This document shows positions 3,285 to 10,859 of a stretch of DNA of 12,883 nucleotides, piece by piece. The stretch is taken from UHGV virus genome UHGV-1313942; one strand, written 5' to 3'. The notes under the pieces are model-generated. The model had not been told where the DNA came from. It searched no databases and saw only the letters and a list, made by a program, of their open reading frames with translations. Every line of letters begins with the position of its first letter. Position 1 is the first letter of the stretch. A program made the position numbers and the translations under genes. Source of the stretch: a virus.

Positions 3285-3932
3285 ATGAAAACGATGCATG
3301 AAATTATCGGGGAAAGGATCAAGTCCCTTAGAGAAGCTAAAGGACTTAGCCAGGCTCAATTGGCCAAGCTTTGCGGCTGGGCTGCGCCTTCACGCCTGGG
3401 GAACTACGAGTTAGGAACAAGAAAGGTTAGCGCGGATGACGCGCTGGTTCTTGGGGCGGCACTCGGCGTATCTCCGGCAAAAATAATGTTTGGCGAGGAT
3501 TCAGACGCCGTATTTCGCCAATATGAATACCCGTTATTTTCTTCAGTGCAGGCCGGGCCATTTTCGGAGGTGGGAAGCTACACAGCCAGCGATGCAAAGG
3601 CATGGGTCCCAACGACCACAAAAGCCAGCGAAAAAGCTTTCTGGCTTGAGGTGAAGGGGCATTCAATGACGGCGCCTCAGGGGGTTCGTCCAAGTTTTCC
3701 GGAAGGCATGCTGATACTCGTTGATCCGGCTGAGCCGGTAGAGTCTGGGGATTTCTGCGTGGCTTCTGCAAATGGTGATTCAGAGGCAACGTTCAAGAAG
3801 TATGAGAAGGATGCAGGGGTTAGTTACCTGGTACCTTTAAACCCGGCATATAGAACACTGGATTGCGACCATAGCTGCCGCATCATAGGCAAGGTAGTTA
3901 AGGCGCAGTGGCCTGAAGAGACGTTTGGCTGA
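3285..3932 (+). CDS. cI: CI/C2-type prophage repressor with C-terminal S24 (LexA-like) autopeptidase domain
   Basis: N-terminal [25 protein letters not shown]; Ala-Gly cleavage site in SVQAGPF; S24 catalytic Ser in GHSM and Lys in FKK. The C-terminal half aligns with P22 C2 as I recall it. Start could be the ATG at 3285 (possibly leaderless) or 3294. Confidence 0.9.
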
Positions 3933-4082
3933 TCGGCAAGGTGTTCTGGTCGGCGCATAGCTGGTGAAAAAATTATTTAATGCGGTGTATTGGCTGATTG
4001 TAACCCCATGTAACATCTTGCCGTCACCATTTCGGTGGTTAGATTTTTAATAAAAAAAAACAAATGTATAGCAAGGTTTTTT

Positions 4083-4562
4083 ATGGATAAAATTAATTAC
4101 CCACCCCTGTTTGAGCCAGGGTTCCATGACATGGATGAAGCTGGATTAAAATCGTATTGTGTCGATTGCTTTCCTTCATCATCCAGGCGAGGCATGCTAT
4201 ACTGTAATTTTATACAGCTACTCGAATCTATTCGAGAATTATCTGCTCAATATGGCTGTTTTACAGAAATATGGGTTGATGGTTCATACACCACGTCTAA
4301 ACCAGAGCCTGATGATATTGATATTTTGTTGGTATGTGACTATAGCAATATAAACTCAATACCTGTCATGCTTCGGGGCCGCGTCGATAATTTGCTTGAC
4401 CGAAACTACATCAAACAAAACTACAAAATTGATGTCCTACTACTCATGAAGAATTTAGATGACCCTAACTATGATTATGAGTACTGGCGTAGCTACTGGC
4501 GCGGTTGGTTTGGTTTTGATCGCAGTGAAAACCCGAAAGGGTTAGTGAGGATTTTTTTATGA
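4083..4562 (+). CDS. Hypothetical protein with Pol-beta-superfamily nucleotidyltransferase signature (cargo gene 1)
   Basis: Track ORF 4035..4562 (GTG start) trimmed to the ATG at 4083 (AAGG RBS 6 nt upstream; the extension runs through an A9 tract). Residues 67-81 GSYTTSKPEPDDIDI fit the NTase motif hG[GS]-x9-13-Dh[DE]h (nt 4281-4325). AT-rich relative to flanks. Stop overlaps the next start (ATGA). Confidence 0.6.
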   Translation: MDKINYPPLFEPGFHDMDEAGLKSYCVDCFPSSSRRGMLYCNFIQLLESIRELSAQYGCFTEIWVDGSYTTSKPEPDDIDILLVCDYSNINSIPVMLRGRVDNLLDRNYIKQNYKIDVLLLMKNLDDPNYDYEYWRSYWRGWFGFDRSENPKGLVRIFL

Positions 4563-5491
4563 ATGATAAATCAATGTTTAAAAATTGCGATAAACGCATT
4601 GATTTCATTCAAAAAGAAGTCGATGCAATGAAGCAAAACAAAACCAGGTCCTTTGCTGACATGCTTCTTTATCGCTCCATGGATTCTCATCTGAGCGATT
4701 TGAAGGCCGAAAAATTAAAGCAAGATAGTCGGCACCCACTTATCGATTTTTTTGAGCTGCGGCTGAAAGGCTCTGAGGTTGACTTTGGCTCTATTCCTTT
4801 AGAGCTGCTTGGGGCTATTTCAACAAATCTTGCAGCGCTAATACAAAGAGCAACACACAAAATTGCCTCAGGCAAGGACTCAAAAAAAGTTCCCTACGAC
4901 GTGAAAAGCTCCTTAAACCTCAGGCTGGCTGATTTATCCCCTGGGTCTACAAAATTGGGCGTCACCTTCTCTACAGGAATAGCAGAATTAGTAGAAACAG
5001 TACCCAGCAAGGCTGTAAAAGGCATATTCGATTTGTTGTTAAGCGATGACGACAACAACTTCATGAATCACGTCGCTGAAATTGGATACAATTCCACTGT
5101 AAGCCTTAAGAGAATCGTAGAGGAATGCGATAAACACAACTTAACATTTGATGCAAGTTGGACCGGTCCATTTAGTAATGGCACCAAGGTGGCAACTATT
5201 GACTCCAATAAAATTAAGTACTTGGTGAGTAGACTTACATCAACCATTTCATCCCCTCCCATTACTGAAACGGTTACAGGCGAACTGGTCGTTCTATCCA
5301 AATATGGGAAGCTGGAGCTTGATGTTGGTGGTGAACATTTAAAGGCTTCCTATCCGATTGAAATGCTAGATTTAATACAAAAAAAACACAAGGTCGGACA
5401 GATTGTTTCTCTTTTAGTGGAGACTACTGAGATTCACAATGATCGCATAGGTCTGTACCGTAAAAACCATCTTGTTAAATCGGTTCTTTAA
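4559..5491 (+). CDS. Hypothetical 310-aa protein, no family recognised (cargo gene 2)
   Basis: Start ATG overlaps the upstream stop (ATGA at 4559-4562), implying translational coupling; AT-rich; followed directly by an intrinsic terminator. No transmembrane segment or catalytic motif that I recognise. Confidence 0.6.
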   Translation: MNDKSMFKNCDKRIDFIQKEVDAMKQNKTRSFADMLLYRSMDSHLSDLKAEKLKQDSRHPLIDFFELRLKGSEVDFGSIPLELLGAISTNLAALIQRATHKIASGKDSKKVPYDVKSSLNLRLADLSPGSTKLGVTFSTGIAELVETVPSKAVKGIFDLLLSDDDNNFMNHVAEIGYNSTVSLKRIVEECDKHNLTFDASWTGPFSNGTKVATIDSNKIKYLVSRLTSTISSPPITETVTGELVVLSKYGKLELDVGGEHLKASYPIEMLDLIQKKHKVGQIVSLLVETTEIHNDRIGLYRKNHLVKSVL

Positions 5492-5498
5492 TATCTCA

Positions 5499-5523
5499 CC
5501 CGGCCACCGCGCCGGGTTTTTTA
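5499..5523 (+). terminator. Rho-independent terminator ending the cI-cargo transcription unit (t_imm analogue)
   Basis: Stem CCCGGC (5499-5504) / GCCGGG (5511-5516), 6-nt loop, followed by TTTTTTATT (5517-5525); begins 8 nt after the stop at 5489-5491. Confidence 0.8.
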
Positions 5524-5735
5524 TTGTCCGCCGATCACTATCAGGACAGCACCTGCCAGCCGGTCCAAACAATTGATTAAATTACTATAATTCTTAATAC
5601 AACTCCCATATCCCGCCATCTCGCCACCACCACCTTCGCTCGTTTTTCGAACTTTTCAGCACCCATCCTGCTGTTGCCACCGACTTAAGTAAGCAAAACC
5701 ATCGCGGGTAAAACTATTTACACAAAAAAATCATA

Positions 5736-5803
5736 CACATAACGTGTCACACCTTTATTTTACACATTTTGTGATTGACCATTAAATCACAATATGTGAC
5801 TAT
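5736..5803 (+). promoter_or_regulatory. OL/PL region: leftward early promoter with repressor operators
   Basis: Candidate PL: -35 TTGACC (5775-5780), 17-bp spacer, -10 GACTAT (5798-5803). Operator-like 12-mers CACATTTTGTGA (5763-5774) and CACAATATGTGA (5788-5799) match the OR site CACAATTTGTGA; weaker CACATAACGTGT at 5736-5747. Sites are spaced about 25-27 bp apart. Confidence 0.65.
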
Positions 5804-5849
5804 CATTTCCATCAGCAGGACGCTGGTAGCCAAACGGAACATATTGGCA

Positions 5850-5891
5850 GGCTCTTTAACATTGATGGGATTGTCCCGCCGAAATGCGGGA
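5850..5891 (+). promoter_or_regulatory. nutL antitermination site (boxA + boxB)
   Basis: boxA GCTCTTTAACA (5851-5861) and boxB hairpin TCCCGC-CGAAAT-GCGGGA (5874-5891); both identical to the minus-strand nutR elements at 2906-2949. Lies downstream of PL and upstream of N. Confidence 0.75.
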
Positions 5892-6249
5892 ACTGAGTTT
5901 AACAAAACAGGAGGTGCCGTAATGGTGCACTAACGCGGTTAGACCGCAGCCGAAAGGCAATGCAGCAGTAATGATGCTGCCCCGAGTCGCGTAATGGCGA
6001 GCAGGTTTAGCAGACCGATGTGAGGGTAAATAAGGGAACATGCTCCGGAAAGGCAGCGCGAATGCCAGACGCGCACCGGTTATCAGCGGCTAATAAGCGA
6101 CAGAGACTCAAGGGCATGAGCGCGCTCACTGCGAGAGTGTGAGTCAAAGAGTAGTTGGCTTTGGGGTGACGTGAAGTGCAGCTGCACGACGGCAACCGGA
6201 AGATAAGCACCCGGCGCGTCACCGCCAAAGTCAATCATCGGAGGTCAAC

Positions 6250-6522
6250 ATGACAGTAGTCATTACATATCTGGCTGACGATAACGCCAGAAATCGCCGC
6301 AGAGCACGCAGACAGGCTCAACGTGAACAGGCAATGCAAGAGCAGCGACTGGCACGAAAAATTGCGCTAAAGCTCTCTGGTTGCGTCAGAGCAGATAAAG
6401 CAGCATCACTCGGAAGCCTTTGCTGCAAGGAAGAAGATGAACGCAGTGGAAGTATTTGCCTGCCAAACGTAGCCATTTACGCGGCAGGATACCGGAAATC
6501 AAAACAACTGACAGCGAGGTAA
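6250..6522 (+). CDS. N: N-family transcription antiterminator (P22 gene 24-like)
   Basis: 90 aa; N-terminal arginine-rich motif NARNRRRARRQAQREQ typical of boxB-binding N proteins; first gene downstream of PL/nutL; GGAGG RBS 7 nt upstream. C-terminal ...LPNVAIYAAGYRKSKQLTAR resembles my recollection of P22 gp24. Confidence 0.8.
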   Translation: MTVVITYLADDNARNRRRARRQAQREQAMQEQRLARKIALKLSGCVRADKAASLGSLCCKEEDERSGSICLPNVAIYAAGYRKSKQLTAR

Positions 6523-6525
6523 GTG

Positions 6526-6750
6526 ATGAATCAGACATACATTCCATCATGCTTGAGAAATCTGCCAAAGCAGAAAGCAAAGCCCCGCAAGCAAGCCATA
6601 AAGGACGCTAAGGCAGAGGTTATTGATCAAGCAATACAATTGCTCAGGGAGGAGTTAAGAAGTGGCAAGCTCGAAGGAATGATGATGCCCTATCAGCGCG
6701 GATATCTATCGGCGATTAGTAAGTTGGAAGTATTGAAGAGTGAATTATGA
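6526..6750 (+). CDS. Hypothetical small basic protein
   Basis: Track ORF 6523..6750 (GTG) trimmed to the adjacent ATG at 6526; GAGG RBS; Lys-rich; immediately follows the N stop. No family recognised. Confidence 0.5.
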   Translation: MNQTYIPSCLRNLPKQKAKPRKQAIKDAKAEVIDQAIQLLREELRSGKLEGMMMPYQRGYLSAISKLEVLKSEL

Positions 6751-6812
6751 ACTATCTGGAATTTCCGGATGGTTCATTGTTTTGGCAGCAAACCACTTAT
6801 TTGAGGTGATAT

Positions 6813-7262
6813 ATGGAAGAACAAGCAAACAAGATTCTCGTAGAACTACTGCAAAAAGCCAGTAATGGAATAGACGCGGCTGTTTCATTCAGCCAGGCAC
6901 AGATTCCTGATGTTGTTCATCAGTTGCTGCTATGGAATATGGTTGACAGTCTGATTAAAACATTAATGGCCATTCTAACAATCCCACTGGTTTTCTGGTT
7001 TATGAAGAAGCAGTGCCAAAGAGTTGAGACAGGTAAAATCGGTGATGAAGGATATTCATGGGAGAAAGGAAATCCCAAATACATGCCGACAATGGTTTGG
7101 GATAGCAAAGGTGATATTAATCTTCTTATCATGCCATTGGTTGTAGTTTTGACTCTGTGGGGGATTTTTATTATTGGTGTAGTAACCAATATGACTTGGT
7201 TAAAAATTTGGCTGGCCCCAAAGCTTTACCTTATCGAATATGCAGCATCATTGGTTAAGTAA
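6813..7262 (+). CDS. Hypothetical membrane protein with two predicted TM helices (possible superinfection-exclusion-type cargo)
   Basis: 149 aa; hydrophobic segments LIKTLMAILTIPLVFWFM and LLIMPLVVVLTLWGIFIIGVV; GAGGTG RBS; AT-rich; followed directly by a terminator. Occupies the post-N position where lambdoid phages carry ral/sieB-type accessory genes. Function is inference only. Confidence 0.55.
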   Translation: MEEQANKILVELLQKASNGIDAAVSFSQAQIPDVVHQLLLWNMVDSLIKTLMAILTIPLVFWFMKKQCQRVETGKIGDEGYSWEKGNPKYMPTMVWDSKGDINLLIMPLVVVLTLWGIFIIGVVTNMTWLKIWLAPKLYLIEYAASLVK

Positions 7263-7266
7263 TTTC

Positions 7267-7291
7267 AGGCCGCATAGTCGGCCTTTATTTT
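7267..7291 (+). terminator. Rho-independent terminator (tL1-like) after the membrane-protein gene
   Basis: Stem AGGCCG (7267-7272) / CGGCCT (7279-7284), loop CATAGT, followed by the T-rich tract TTTATTTT. Confidence 0.7.
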
Positions 7292-7314
7292 GGGCATAAA
7301 CAACAGAGGTGAAT

Positions 7315-7602
7315 ATGAAAGAGTTTAAGGGTACGCCTGGTAAATGGAAGTACACGGTTAGAAACGTCAACGAGATGATGACTACGTTCCATGGTGTGAC
7401 GATTGGTGACACATACATTGAAGCAGCAACAAGAAATGAAAGGGAGGATGCGCTACTGATAGCGGCAGCACCTGACCTTCTCGAAGCACTTCAGTTATTA
7501 CTTAAGCAATCCAAAAATAGAACAACGACAACATATCCAGAATGGTATGAAGCTGTTAATAAAGGTCTTGCAGCAATCAGAAAAGCTCTTGGGGATAAGT
7601 AA
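7315..7602 (+). CDS. Hypothetical phage protein
   Basis: Track ORF 7309..7602 (GTG) trimmed to the ATG at 7315 with AGAGG RBS 5 nt upstream. No family recognised. Confidence 0.55.
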   Translation: MKEFKGTPGKWKYTVRNVNEMMTTFHGVTIGDTYIEAATRNEREDALLIAAAPDLLEALQLLLKQSKNRTTTTYPEWYEAVNKGLAAIRKALGDK

Positions 7603-7790
7603 TGAAAGTAAAAATAACTGCTTCTAATACCAGTTTTGTTAGTGTTGGTGATATTACAGAAGTAATAACAAACCATGATGGAACCCAAGTTATGTGGTCT
7701 GATTTTTGTAAAAGATATGAGCGAGTCACTTGGTGTAAACTCGTATGGGGCGTCGAATACGAAGAATTACCTGAAATGCATGACGAATAA
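7602..7790 (+). CDS. Hypothetical small phage protein
   Basis: 62 aa; start ATG overlaps the upstream stop (TAATG), implying translational coupling. No family recognised. Confidence 0.5.
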   Translation: MKVKITASNTSFVSVGDITEVITNHDGTQVMWSDFCKRYERVTWCKLVWGVEYEELPEMHDE

Positions 7791-7795
7791 GCACT

Positions 7796-7823
7796 GTGTA
7801 TTCATTCCAACGAGTGAATACAC
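7796..7823. repeat. Perfect 9-bp inverted repeat with 10-nt spacer (RNA hairpin or protein-binding site)
   Basis: GTGTATTCA (7796-7804) and TGAATACAC (7815-7823); not followed by a U-tract; lies in the intergenic region upstream of the cIII-proximal terminator. Confidence 0.45.
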
Positions 7824-7885
7824 GGAGCAATGTCGCTCGTAACTAAACAGGAGCCGACTTGTTCTGATTATTGGAAATCTTCTTT

Positions 7886-7909
7886 GCCCTCCAGTGTGAG
7901 GGCTTTTTT
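7886..7909 (+). terminator. Rho-independent terminator upstream of cIII (tL-like; read-through would require N antitermination)
   Basis: Stem GCCCTC (7886-7891) / GAGGGC (7898-7903), loop CAGTGT, followed by TTTTTT (7904-7909). Confidence 0.75.
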
Positions 7910-7975
7910 ATATGCATACCAATAACGCTTCACTCGAGGCGTTTTCGTTATGCAATCAAACAGAAGGAGCATCCT

Positions 7976-8146
7976 ATGCAACAGTTCGCTATTGCAGGGG
8001 CGGCATCGGTTCGCCCTTTCAACCCGATTTTATCGGTACAGCATTCACGAAAAAATATTTTAACCGGAGCAGACTTTAAACAACCTCGCGTTAAGAGCTT
8101 GCTGGATCGTCTTGTTGAGTTTCTGAATCAAAAGGTACAGCCATGA
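7976..8146 (+). CDS. cIII: CIII-like protein (FtsH inhibitor / CII stabiliser)
   Basis: Track ORF 7871..8146 trimmed to the ATG at 7976 (AAGGAG RBS 6 nt upstream; the extension would span the terminator). 56 aa; MQQFAIAG...SLLDRLVEFLNQ resembles lambda CIII as I recall it (MQYAIAGW...SLLERITRKL...LNQ). Confidence 0.65.
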   Translation: MQQFAIAGAASVRPFNPILSVQHSRKNILTGADFKQPRVKSLLDRLVEFLNQKVQP

Positions 8147-8307
8147 AAAAACCAACTTACGAGGAACTGGAAGAAGCCCTGAAAGAGCTTAGAAGAATGG
8201 CTTTCGCCAGACGCACTAACTCTCACAACTGCGGCCCATTTCAGTACTCGGATTTATGCGAGGACATCATTGAGGTAACTCAACTGATTAAGGTCGTTAA
8301 GCAATGA
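8143..8307 (+). CDS. Small hypothetical protein (54 aa; Kil position by synteny only)
   Basis: Not in the track. ATG overlaps the cIII stop (ATGA); translation MKKPTYEELEEALKELRRMAFARRTNSHNCGPFQYSDLCEDIIEVTQLIKVVKQ. Confidence 0.45.
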   Translation: MKKPTYEELEEALKELRRMAFARRTNSHNCGPFQYSDLCEDIIEVTQLIKVVKQ

Positions 8308-8411
8308 GTATTGCGGATACATGGTCAGACGAAGAATTCATTCGTCAGATGAACAAAATGCTCAATCAGCACAAAGAACAGGATAAAGATGATGATTCTG
8401 ACTCTGAATGA
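8304..8411 (+). CDS. Possible very small acidic ORF (35 aa), translationally coupled
   Basis: ATG overlaps the upstream stop (ATGA); MSIADTWSDEEFIRQMNKMLNQHKEQDKDDDSDSE; overlaps the start of the next ORF by 23 nt. Existence is uncertain. Confidence 0.25.
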   Translation: MSIADTWSDEEFIRQMNKMLNQHKEQDKDDDSDSE

Positions 8412-8700
8412 TAAGCGTGAAATATCGCAAATAATCGCAAGTTTTACTGATGAAGATTACGAACGAATCAACAGTGAAGTTGATCGCCTCTGCAAACGTT
8501 GCGACCCAATAAGCGAAATGCTTCGCTCATATAAACCAGATGAACACACTAAGGACGCTATCGACTGGCTGGAAGATGATGACTGTAACTATCAGGAAAA
8601 AGCCGCTGAATGGTTCTGGGATGCAATAACCGAAAGAGTTAAGGCTGAATATGCCTTCGCAATATTCAAACGCAGACACATTTTTGGAGAAGCAGCATGA
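8389..8700 (+). CDS. Hypothetical phage protein
   Basis: 103 aa; stop overlaps the RecT start (ATGA). No family recognised. Confidence 0.55.
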   Translation: MMILTLNDKREISQIIASFTDEDYERINSEVDRLCKRCDPISEMLRSYKPDEHTKDAIDWLEDDDCNYQEKAAEWFWDAITERVKAEYAFAIFKRRHIFGEAA

Positions 8701-9608
8701 GCAATATCGTTGAATTCGTTAAACAGCAAGAGCAGTTATTCTGCGGAGCATTGACTGAACAGACGGTGACATGGGCTAAGGAAAGCCAGTTTGCAATTCA
8801 GTATTTCCAGAAAAATGATTACCTGGCTAAAACTGCACTGGCAAATCCAACCAGCGCACAGAACGCCATCATCAATGTTGCGGCGATCGGCATCACCTTA
8901 AACCCGGCTAGCAAACTGGCTTATCTGGTTCCGCGCGACGGCATGGTGTGCCTTGATATCAGCTATATGGGATTACTACATATTGCAATGGAGTCTGGTG
9001 TTATCTCATGGGGTCAGGCAAAGCTTGTTCATGCTAACGATACTTATGAGTCAAACGGACTTGATAAAGCACCAACCCATAAATACAACGCCTTCGGTGA
9101 TCGTGGCGATATCGTTGGTGTTTACTGCACAGTTAAGACGCCAGCAGGTGATTATCTAACGGAAGAGATGAGTCTGGCTGAAATTGAGGCTGTAAGGAAA
9201 ACAAGCAAGGCGGCATTCAGCGATAAAGGACCATGGGTAAATCACTGGAATGAGATGGCGCGAAAGACGGTCGTAAAGCGTGCAAGCAAGTATTGGCCTA
9301 AGGCATCACGTCTTGATAGTGCTATTCACGTACTAAACGAAGAAGAAGGTGTATGGACTGAACCAGTTATGCCGCACAAATCAGAGGAAGATATCCGCGA
9401 AGATGAACGGAAACGCCAGCAGGAAATAACGGATAAAGCACAACTTCTTTGTGATGAAATGGCTCAGGCTGAAAACATGGATGATTTGAAGAGATATTTT
9501 GCAGAAGCATATCGCCTGACATCTGGAATGAAATTGCAGCAGAACATACAAGCCATTTACATAGAATGCAAAGCGAAACTGGAGGTTGCCAGTGAGCAAA
9601 CTATATGA
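8697..9608 (+). CDS. recT: RecT-family single-strand annealing recombinase
   Basis: 303 aa; GPWVNHWNEMARKTVVKRASKYWP closely matches the conserved E. coli RecT segment as I recall it (GPWVTHWEEMAKKTAIRRLFKYLP); occupies the bet/erf position of the early-left operon. Confidence 0.85.
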   Translation: MSNIVEFVKQQEQLFCGALTEQTVTWAKESQFAIQYFQKNDYLAKTALANPTSAQNAIINVAAIGITLNPASKLAYLVPRDGMVCLDISYMGLLHIAMESGVISWGQAKLVHANDTYESNGLDKAPTHKYNAFGDRGDIVGVYCTVKTPAGDYLTEEMSLAEIEAVRKTSKAAFSDKGPWVNHWNEMARKTVVKRASKYWPKASRLDSAIHVLNEEEGVWTEPVMPHKSEEDIREDERKRQQEITDKAQLLCDEMAQAENMDDLKRYFAEAYRLTSGMKLQQNIQAIYIECKAKLEVASEQTI

Positions 9609-10074
9609 AATTGCCAATGAATACGCAAAATTGATGGATTCAGATTTAGAACCAGAGATGATTGCTGACACAATAGAAGGCATGGAAGGAGAATTTACCG
9701 ATAAAATAGAACAACTTCTTTCCGTCATTAAAAATGAATCTGGTTATGCCGAACGCCTCAAGGAAGAGGCAAAGTCACTGAATGAGCGAGCCGCAGTAAT
9801 TCAAAATAAGATTGACAGCATCAAATCATATATAGCGTCATCGCTTGAAATGGTTGGCAAGAAAAATATTCGAGCAGGTATTCACCAGGTAACAATCCGC
9901 AAACCGTCAGAAATTGTAGAAATAATCGACTCAAGCGCCCTTCCTCCTGAATACGTTGAGTTTGAAACGACAATTAAAGCCGACAAACTGGCAATCAAGC
10001 ACCAACTAAAAGCAGGAATAAATATTCCCGGTGCTCAACTCAAGGTTGGGGAACCTTCACTTCTTATCAAATAA
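9592..10074 (+). CDS. Hypothetical protein, tentatively Sipho_Gp157-like, downstream of recT
   Basis: Track ORF starts at TTG 9586, directly abutting GGAGG (9581-9585); I prefer the in-frame GTG at 9592 (6-nt spacing). Family assignment is from memory of similar annotations and is weak. Confidence 0.5.
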   Translation: MSKLYEIANEYAKLMDSDLEPEMIADTIEGMEGEFTDKIEQLLSVIKNESGYAERLKEEAKSLNERAAVIQNKIDSIKSYIASSLEMVGKKNIRAGIHQVTIRKPSEIVEIIDSSALPPEYVEFETTIKADKLAIKHQLKAGINIPGAQLKVGEPSLLIK

Positions 10075-10085
10075 CGGTATCGCCT

Positions 10086-10400
10086 ATGAAAAAGACTCCA
10101 TGGGAGAAATGGGAAGTCGATTTCTTGCGCGAAGTATCGGCGACAATGCCAGTTGAAGTTATTGCTGAAAAACTGGAAAGGACTGAAAAATCAGTTATGG
10201 CGAAAGCAACAAGGATTGGCGCTGACATTGTTAGCCGACTTCGTGGAAGACGCTGGACAAGAGCCGAAGTATCACTTTTCGGTAAGTTCTCCGCAGAAGA
10301 AATAGCAATTGCAACCTGCCGCTCAATTTATTCAGTAAGAGCTATGCGATACAAGCTAAAAAAACTCGATGAAGAAAGAGCAGGCATACGAATAAATTAA
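10086..10400 (+). CDS. Hypothetical protein with an internal tandem repeat (possible Myb/SANT-like DNA-binding fold)
   Basis: 104 aa; two similar halves (WEKWEVDFLREV...KSVMAKATRIG and WTRAEVSLFGKF...YSVRAMRYKL). No confident family. Confidence 0.55.
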   Translation: MKKTPWEKWEVDFLREVSATMPVEVIAEKLERTEKSVMAKATRIGADIVSRLRGRRWTRAEVSLFGKFSAEEIAIATCRSIYSVRAMRYKLKKLDEERAGIRIN

Positions 10401-10416
10401 CATGGAGTAATTAACA

Positions 10417-10698
10417 ATGAAGCTAAACATCGACCTCGGAAAATACGTTATTACCGGAACCAAACACGATCTGATTCTTAGCGAAAGAGGAATTATCAAA
10501 GAAGGCGAGAATGCAGGGAAAGAAACACTAAGTCGTATCGGTTATTACAGCAAGTTTGAGCATCTGGTCAAAGAGTTATGCAACCGTGAAATCCTGTTAT
10601 CTCAGGCGCAGACGCTACAGGATATTCAGCAACATATCGAGACTTTAGCTGTGTCACTTAGCATGGCCGTTGACCAGTTCGTGGAGAGTAAATCATGA
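10417..10698 (+). CDS. Hypothetical phage protein
   Basis: 93 aa; GGAG RBS 9 nt upstream; stop overlaps the next start. Confidence 0.55.
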
Positions 10699-10859
10699 GA
10701 GGTCTTGCATACAATCCCGGCATTCTTCCGGCAGAAATGATTATTCGCCAACGCGTAAAGCCAATGCCATCGAGAGAGGAATTGCTTAAGAGAAATTCTT
10801 TTCCATCAGTGAATCAAAACAAGTATCTGAATGCGATGTTGCGGAGTGGGAAGAAATGA
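10695..10859 (+). CDS. Small hypothetical protein (54 aa)
   Basis: Not in the track. ATG overlaps the upstream stop and its stop overlaps the downstream start (both ATGA); [54 protein letters not shown]. Confidence 0.45.

Follow-up and report, generated by a model that had tools for sequence, protein, structure and literature searches.

Two small genes follow the antiterminator gene N in UHGV virus genome UHGV-1313942, of which a stretch of 12,883 nucleotides was analyzed (the window, to whose plus strand all features below belong unless stated otherwise). The first, ORF74 (6526-6750, with the reading frame open from 6523), encodes a basic protein of 74 aa counted from its ATG, and the second, ORF149 (6813-7262), encodes a predicted inner-membrane protein of 149 aa. 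A sequence-only reading of this DNA had described them as a cargo pair, comparable to the ral and sieB genes of lambdoid phages. We found that ORF74 and ORF149 are two independent accessory genes of the early-left (PL) operon and form no two-gene system, because they assort independently in both E. coli genomes and viral loci. ORF74 is less a piece of variable cargo than a constant companion of N, and ORF149 would be a promoterless, terminator-capped cassette occupying a hypervariable slot. Taken as a whole, the earlier observation is confirmed and its interpretation is partly supported.

The census of E. coli covered 5,426 complete genomes, a gene being counted as present at a coverage of at least 80%. 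ORF74 was found in 145 of these genomes and ORF149 in 130, with the two genes adjacent in 6; one of the six adjacent pairs has a remnant of Ral between ORF74 and ORF149. Viral contexts were counted at 80 IMG/VR loci with ORF74 and at 80 IMG/VR loci with close homologues of ORF149 (76-100% identity). The nearest upstream neighbor of ORF149 was Ral at 26 loci, one of three types of N at 28, and ORF74 at 4, while the remaining loci had genes farther from N (16), the late-region gene Rz farther upstream (3), or no reference gene (3). Looking in the other direction, ORF149 was the next gene downstream at 8 of the 80 ORF74-bearing loci. The same independence is seen in individual phages: mEp213, mEpX2, ECP1, phi296, and others carry N and ORF74 followed by genes other than ORF149; HF4s has a different N directly before an ORF149 homologue annotated as a "TM helix-containing protein"; and in CUS-3 N is followed by ral and then by a homologue 50% identical to ORF149. 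The description of the two genes as a pair was accordingly abandoned. Their AT-richness relative to N was borne out, with GC contents of 0.436 for ORF74 and 0.393 for ORF149 compared to 0.498 for N and 0.455 for the whole window. This low GC is real, yet it is no distinguishing mark of cargo, because values of 0.35-0.45 also hold for the remainder of the leftward operon (7300-10800).

Between the two genes is a 14-bp perfect hairpin with a 3-nt loop (6747-6777, continuing with UGUUUUGG to 6785), which overlaps the stop codon of ORF74. It is much stronger than the hairpin after ORF149 and had gone unmentioned in the sequence-only reading. The hairpin folds at -21 kcal/mol (z -5.45), none of 200 shuffled sequences folded as well, and the element at 6747-6785 was flagged as terminator-like by a terminator scan. 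It is invariant, or nearly so, among the commonest downstream variants of ORF74 loci. The element may be a tL1-like terminator or may serve in RNA processing or stabilization, and it marks the end of an N-ORF74 module. A conserved linker, GCAGCAAACCACTTATTTGAGGTGATAT plus ATG (6786-6815), then provides the Shine-Dalgarno (SD) sequence and the start codon. The linker sequence 3' of the hairpin, GCAGCAAACCACTTATTTGAGGTGAtATATG, is conserved, and the loci diverge from the ATG onward, a pattern that makes the linker the upstream recombination junction of a variable cassette slot. Across 77 loci, 47 distinct ORFs were found 3' of ORF74, Ral among them. Comparison of positions 6200-7700 with phage records by megablast yielded pieces that break at approximately 6804-6824 and 7307, and no phage record covered 80% or more of this segment.

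The architecture of the slot is precisely defined, leading from the N-ORF74 module through the hairpin and the SD/ATG linker to an exchangeable gene with its own terminator. The locus is a clean example of lambdoid accessory-gene exchange and can help in the prediction of cargo slots and in phage engineering. The sequence-only reading had placed an accessory slot after N, and this part of it stands: within a lambdoid early-left operon, this is the variable slot, with ORF149, a predicted inner-membrane protein of small size, as exchangeable cargo. As they stand, ORF74 and ORF149 are ordinary: two hypothetical cargo genes in a slot whose variability was no news.

Examination of the junction between N and ORF74 revealed that the ATG of ORF74 lies 3 nt past the TAA of N and in the same frame, with its SD sequence, GAGG, formed by the last codons of N. 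At the IMG/VR loci, a homologue of N ends directly 5' of ORF74 in 78 of 80 cases, and the exact junction AGG TAA GTG ATG is present in 77. The identity of these upstream N homologues to the N of the window ranges from about 30% to 100%, and at many of the loci N can be aligned solely from residues ~46-69 to residue 90. This starting point of the alignments indicates that the mosaic breakpoints fall within N, and not between N and ORF74, with the C-terminal part of N and ORF74 being inherited together. The coupling to N argues for immediate-early co-expression of ORF74, although not necessarily for a shared function. Given its translational coupling to N and its position 5' of the strong hairpin, ORF74 would be made alongside N as an immediate-early product. 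Phage mEp213 presents an unusual arrangement, as its record annotates a pair of antitermination N genes that differ from each other, in tandem segments (2466-2798 and 3951-4223), the second followed by the ORF74 homologue, in a duplicated post-immunity region.

The ORF74 protein was rightly called Lys-rich, having 9 Lys and 5 Arg among its 74 residues and a pI of 9.7. A Lys/Pro-rich N-terminal tail precedes two predicted helices, and the product would be small, basic, and helical, and probably cytoplasmic. It matches phrog_5305 over residues 1-74 (E 4.6e-38), a family annotated as of "unknown function", and its homologues form 41 clusters. With a dN/dS of about 0.1-0.25, calculated from the few differences available, ORF74 is a genuine coding gene under purifying selection. 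No family was matched in the Pfam and NCBIfam scans, a profile search of PDB sequences gave nothing better than E 0.057, and PADLOC-DB returned solely a 14-residue match at chance level (E 0.015). Distant homologues (38-55% identity) are also found where N is missing. HK225 has its copy as the first gene annotated after a PL-like promoter, and in virulent T1-like and Sasha-like siphophages, as well as in Pseudomonas and Vibrio phages, homologues adjoin terminase genes. These matches make ORF74 a widespread small phage protein.

Ral (PF11058) is an anti-restriction protein whose gene normally lies just after N. ORF74 resembles it in taking the first post-N position, in size (74 aa compared to 66 aa for Ral), and in being co-transcribed with N. 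However, Ral and ORF74 can share one locus and are therefore not alternatives, and ORF74 gave no match to PF11058, while the control, CUS-3 Ral, matched at 4e-48; hhalign gave a probability of 0.1%. The identification of ORF74 as Ral was rejected on these profile comparisons. Read-through from N into the in-frame ORF74 was likewise rejected as the main explanation of the junction, ORF74 having its own SD and ATG and homologues without N. The junction could also be taken to mean that ORF74 is functionally tied to N, for instance by modulating the stability of N or the antitermination complex. The invariant stop/start arrangement with the SD inside the last N codons, the presence of N upstream at 77-78 of 80 loci with breakpoints inside N, and the position of both genes 5' of the conserved hairpin, as a plausible immediate-early unit, would all be in keeping with such a tie. 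Nonetheless, we consider it quite unlikely, given that homologues of ORF74 occur without any N in HK225 and, next to terminase genes, in other phages, and that close linkage between neighboring genes is to be expected even without a functional link.

ORF149 is also a genuine coding gene under purifying selection, with a dN/dS of 0.07-0.40 against nine homologues (74-89% identical). Its stop codon is followed by the terminator-like hairpin AGGCCG-CATAGT-CGGCCT (7267-7284), which has a 6-bp GC-rich stem, continues with TTATTTTGGG to 7294, and was called by the terminator scan. The intrinsic terminator recognized here by the sequence-only reading is weak in fold energy, yet it is retained: the hairpin and its T-run stand directly after the ORF149 stop in essentially all of the 80 viral loci. 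That they are kept whatever gene lies downstream supports the view that 7267-7294 is a functional 3' end, and the element travels with the ORF149 cassette. At the other end, the final 10-25 nt before the ATG of ORF149 (…GAGGTGATATATG) are retained across its viral loci. A consensus scan found no plus-strand sigma-70-like promoter within 5400-8000, and no promoter of its own was found directly 5' of ORF149, where the preceding 60 nt consist of the hairpin and the shared SD linker. Because terminator-like hairpins lie on both sides of the gene and no promoter of its own was found, ORF149 would be transcribed solely from PL following antitermination by N; its expression would then belong to lytic development and not to the lysogen.

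The ORF149 protein matches phrog_3054 over its entire length (residues 1-149, E 3.2e-64), and this family, too, is annotated as of "unknown function". A word-indexed search retrieved 516 relatives, every one of them unnamed, and an exhaustive profile search retrieved 2,471 clusters at 50% identity with E<=1e-3, of which 1,106 had E<=1e-10. All of 105 diverse relatives matched phrog_3054. No match to ORF149 was obtained in Pfam at E<=1, in NCBIfam, or in PADLOC, the Pfam scan of the 105 relatives gave scattered matches at chance level alone, and a profile search of PDB sequences returned nothing. The homology and structure-database searches that had been proposed as a check on the exclusion idea have in this way produced PHROG matches of "unknown function" only, and no relative of ORF149 among exclusion proteins.

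The two hydrophobic helices first noticed in ORF149 correspond to segments at ~46-64 and ~104-126, with Kyte-Doolittle means over 19 residues of up to 1.9 and 2.7, respectively, and exactly two such segments are present in 98 of the 105 diverse family members. Conservation is seen in the acidic N-tail (1-45) and in the C-tail (128-149), whereas the basic inter-helix loop (65-103) varies; across the family this segment differs in sequence and ranges in length from 10 to 69 residues. Near-invariant positions cluster at residues 1-46 (…F.QAQIPDV..QLL.W) and 129-147 (WLKIW.APKLYL.EYAA.L). In 95 of 98 members, more K+R lay within 15 residues of the helices on the loop side than on the tail side, with a mean of 3.7 just after the first transmembrane (TM) helix compared to 0.6 before it, and the N-tail contains on average 6.1 acidic and 2.4 basic residues. 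Application of the positive-inside rule to this loop-side excess predicts an N-out/C-out topology, in which both termini would be periplasmic and the variable basic loop cytoplasmic. The AlphaFold2 model built from the 105-sequence alignment (pLDDT 89, pTM 0.68) has a long helix at 2-68, the second TM helix at 106-125, and C-terminal helices at 128-148; an earlier model from a shallow alignment (pLDDT 64) was discarded. With the predicted topology, the conserved helices at the N and C termini would build a small domain on the membrane's periplasmic face.

The ORF149 family is very large and conserved and occurs in temperate as well as virulent phages of many Proteobacteria. By tblastn it was found in 181 phage records, those of virulent N4-like, phi92-like, Vibrio, Pseudomonas, and Ralstonia phages among them. 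Virulent phi92-like myoviruses carry a member, gp220, in an early-type gene block, and three genera of N4-like Schitoviridae carry one in a block of early/middle genes. In FSL SP-058 and MY01 the RNA polymerase II subunit genes lie a few genes 5' of it, with lipoprotein/adhesin and dUTPase genes on its 3' side, and in the N4-like Vibrio phage 1.238.A no such landmarks are annotated near the family member. This placement suggests a semi-core middle gene of the N4-like group. Vibrio myoviruses have a lone member on the opposite strand between tail-completion and head-closure genes, the member in Pseudomonas phages is annotated as similar to Sf6 gene 34, and Rheinheimera phages also carry one. 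Three separate places in the Ralstonia jumbo phage RsoM2USA (MG752970.1) match ORF149, suggestive of paralogous expansion of the family within one genome. In PhiR46_1 a copy 76% identical to ORF149 is located between the lysis genes (Rz) and Nu1. Bacterial contexts were surveyed at 37 species-representative loci. About 10 of these follow a cI-like gene within a lambdoid early-left operon, the others being placed elsewhere, and at two loci the homologue lies beside the portal operon, on the opposite strand.

Taken across these contexts, the family is a mobile accessory gene of lytic programs, neither specific to prophages nor a consistent core gene of lysis or morphogenesis. Comparative genomics, another of the proposed checks, upheld the variability of the locus, and the homologues, found in mixed contexts, are not consistently core lysis or morphogenesis genes; the two genes, on the other hand, were not kept together. 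A prophage-specific exclusion function does not agree with the distribution of the family, because it is common in strictly virulent phages and at the ends of lysis cassettes.

Several described systems resemble ORF149 in part; as a protein, it shares with the known exclusion proteins no more than the broad class of small phage inner-membrane proteins. SieB is the abortive-type superinfection exclusion protein that lambda and P22 express from the prophage. ORF149 is like SieB in its neighborhood between N and ral, in being a small membrane-associated accessory protein, and in its variable presence among lambdoid phages. However, neither ORF149 (E<=1) nor its 105 relatives (E<=0.01) matched the SieB profile PF14163, which recovered the lambda SieB control at 1e-29, and hhalign of the ORF149 family alignment gave a probability of 0.2% against lambda SieB and 0.25% against P22 SieB. 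In the lambda and P22 records sieB is on the strand opposite N, with a promoter and an RNA start annotated for it in that of P22, whereas ORF149 is oriented in the PL direction with no promoter found. SieB, moreover, was not seen in virulent phages in the present searches, while relatives of ORF149 were. The sequence-only reading, which drew the sieB analogy, had itself recognized no similarity to SieB, and the PF14163 scan and hhalign agree with it on that point; the analogy fails on profile, hhalign, strand, and promoter, and ORF149 was rejected as a SieB.

Imm of T4 is a small membrane protein of a virulent phage that is expressed early and blocks DNA entry (Lu & Henning 1994, cited in PMC12373910). 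As a small inner-membrane protein of lytic infection, it is the closest functional analogy for a family common to virulent phages. Imm is, however, roughly half the size of ORF149, and ORF149, which had no Pfam match at E<=1, is likened to it by description and not by sequence comparison. SieA of P22 is a plausible analogue as well, being a small phage inner-membrane protein without a signal peptide that would interfere with the conduit for DNA delivery. For SieA three transmembrane domains are predicted and expression by the prophage is described (PMC10883804), compared to two such segments in ORF149, and the P22 record places sieA beside ejection and tailspike genes with its own promoter. 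With an hhalign probability of 0.1% and a differing TM count, ORF149 was rejected as a SieA. A further likeness is to morons, for which HK97 gp15 and lambda bor and lom are given as lambdoid examples (PMC3594210). ORF149 is similarly an exchangeable single gene with its own terminator, a GC content below that of the window, and several genomic slots, and is present or absent between otherwise similar genomes. The neighboring early genes are, however, similarly low in GC, and classical morons are autonomous units with their own promoter that the prophage expresses, whereas ORF149 uses a shared SD/ATG linker in the PL operon.

The above considerations lead us to propose, tentatively, that ORF149 closes or protects the inner-membrane route taken by the DNA of secondary phages, or protects the envelope, during lytic growth, in the manner of Imm, DicB, or SieA; we regard this as possible, though not probable. 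The partner of the protein would be a conserved component of the host envelope and not a fast-evolving phage protein, because the motifs predicted to face the periplasm are conserved across unrelated phages and hosts, while holins, spanins, and ejection proteins are highly diverse. The wider form of the proposal, in which phrog_3054 comprises pan-phage inner-membrane effectors that bind one conserved host envelope machine via their periplasmic N- and C-terminal helices, we regard as rather doubtful. The gene can move between early operon and lysis cassette, and the family is common to temperate lambdoid and P22-like phages and to virulent ones. If the proposal were true, phrog_3054 would constitute an unrecognized but widespread control of DNA entry or envelope integrity in lytic infection, and a single experiment could give thousands of "hypothetical proteins" an annotation and reveal a target in the host envelope. 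Several observations weigh against the proposal. No experimentally based name was found among the ORF149 homologues, and literature searches retrieved no paper on the family of either ORF74 or ORF149. The topology follows from the positive-inside rule only and is predicted to involve a 45-residue N-tail crossing the membrane without a signal peptide. The fold of the downstream hairpin is modest (-10.1 kcal/mol, z -1.5), and the promoter scan was limited to strict consensus, so that a weak or non-sigma-70 promoter active in the lysogen is possible. At six of the 37 bacterial loci the homologue abuts the Rz spanin gene (-13 to +7 nt from its stop), and a seventh Rz-region locus, that of Dryocola clanedunensis, has a KilA-N gene interposed between the two. 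The Rz adjacency and the PhiR46_1 copy point toward a lysis-related role with late expression, a timing poorly suited to exclusion.

It is from these loci that the main alternative arises, namely that the ORF149 family consists of accessory regulators of lysis or envelope integrity, for instance antiholin-like, spanin-modulating, or keeping the inner membrane energized until programmed lysis. The Rz-abutting loci belong to prophages of Buttiauxella (two), Dryocola, Proteus, Providencia, and Xenorhabdus, where the homologue ends the lysis cassette (endolysin, Rz) and precedes terminase or KilA-N genes. Rz was confirmed by Pfam Phage_lysis at the two loci checked (E 1e-26 to 5e-29), the endolysin at the one locus checked is a GH19-type match, and an unannotated ORF of ~125 aa occupies the holin position. 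A homologue standing last in a holin-endolysin-Rz cassette at so small a gap would be operonically or translationally coupled to it, and at two Yersinia loci the homologue follows an M15 endolysin module with a 124-aa ORF. The copy of PhiR46_1 next to Rz agrees with this arrangement, the predicted periplasmic domain would share the compartment of Rz and the periplasmic parts of holins, and occurrence in virulent phages fits a function in the lytic cycle. The ORF149 copy studied here and most E. coli and P22-like copies lie, however, in the early PL operon far from any lysis genes, and the N4-like copies, which come after the RNA polymerase II genes, have early/middle genes around them. The interval from Rz to terminase is a classical moron slot, that of lambda bor, and the adjacency may reflect a site of insertion and not what the protein does. 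Holins and spanins are also extremely diverse, unlike the strongly conserved tail motifs of ORF149, which in addition does not have the charged C-terminal tail typical of holins. We judge a regulator of this kind to be rather unlikely, and would say the same of its supposed action from the inner membrane and the periplasmic face during the lytic cycle. ORF149 as the holin itself was rejected, both for its missing charged C-terminal tail and because the Rz-adjacent loci already have an ORF that, by position and with no Pfam annotation, we infer to be the holin.

The early copies admit another reading, that ORF149 is a counter-defense or host-takeover factor directed at a membrane abortive-infection effector or at a conserved inner-membrane machine. 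The same segment of the operon in related phages holds host-directed Ral, CIII (an inhibitor of FtsH), and Kil, the slot is hypervariable, as is typical for arms-race cargo, members in virulent phages are placed early/middle, and the conservation of the motifs across hosts suggests a conserved host target. Against this, ORF149 has no similarity to described anti-defense proteins in PADLOC, Pfam, or the literature, showed no co-occurrence with a particular defense system, and has copies joined to lysis cassettes whose late expression would be too late for most such roles. A counter-defense factor is in our estimate unlikely; so is the more specific version in which the machine is a protease, transporter, or division component and phage exclusion is not the selected function. 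The original conception of a ral/sieB-type pair, whose membrane protein gives superinfection exclusion from the prophage, retains the correspondence of the post-N position to the ral/sieB region of lambda and P22, a small inner-membrane protein, and a slot variable among related prophages. It appears very unlikely, however, when set against the adjacency of the genes in 6 of 5,426 genomes though each is present in approximately 130-145, the absence of any relationship of ORF149 to SieB or SieA and of ORF74 to Ral, and the location of ORF149, with no promoter of its own detected, between two terminator-like hairpins in a repressed PL operon. Furthermore, the slot 3' of cI, where expression in the lysogen is expected, is taken by another pair, the candidate defense genes PDC-M63A/B.

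The window spans the immunity and early region of an E. coli-type lambdoid prophage whose organization is P22-like. DnaB-like and O-like replication genes and cII-like and cro-like genes are on the minus strand, and cI (3285-3932) is followed directly on its 3' side by a candidate defense gene pair (4035-5491) with a terminator at 5498-5517. The pair, within 4035-5517, consists of two overlapping genes encoding 175 aa and 310 aa, with GC of 0.38-0.40, and matches the PADLOC candidate defense system PDC-M63A/B at E 2e-41 and 7e-45, in a position equivalent to that of rexAB in lambda. Because they are in the rexAB position 3' of cI, these are the genes of the window most likely expressed from the prophage. 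After the terminator at 5498-5517 comes a leader of ~700 nt upstream of N. N itself (6250-6522, 90 aa) has the arginine-rich motif NARNRRRARRQAQRE and matches Pfam N_peptide PF25694 at E 5e-15 and phrog_271 at E 3e-33.

Within the leader is a candidate nutL (5850-5891), composed of a boxA-like GGCTCTTTA (5850-5858) and a boxB-like hairpin, TCCCGC-CGAAAT-GCGGGA (5874-5891). The boxA-like site alone is at chance level, with 11 matches to the pattern compared to 11.9 expected; it lies 15 nt before the boxB-like hairpin and ~360 nt upstream of N, and this position before the hairpin and distance to N make the nutL assignment plausible. With this candidate nutL, the PL transcript would start upstream of it, and a single leftward-type operon would contain N, ORF74, and ORF149. 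The promoter scan detected no sigma-70 consensus PL promoter, and an Rfam scan over the whole window matched nothing. On the 3' side of ORF74 and ORF149 are more small ORFs and recombination genes. The small ORFs within 7315-7790 encode proteins of 95 aa (phrog_1273) and 62 aa (phrog_10407, GC 0.35), and two additional terminator-like hairpins are located at 7886-7903 and 7924-7943. The early-left operon looks like a row of cargo genes punctuated by terminators.

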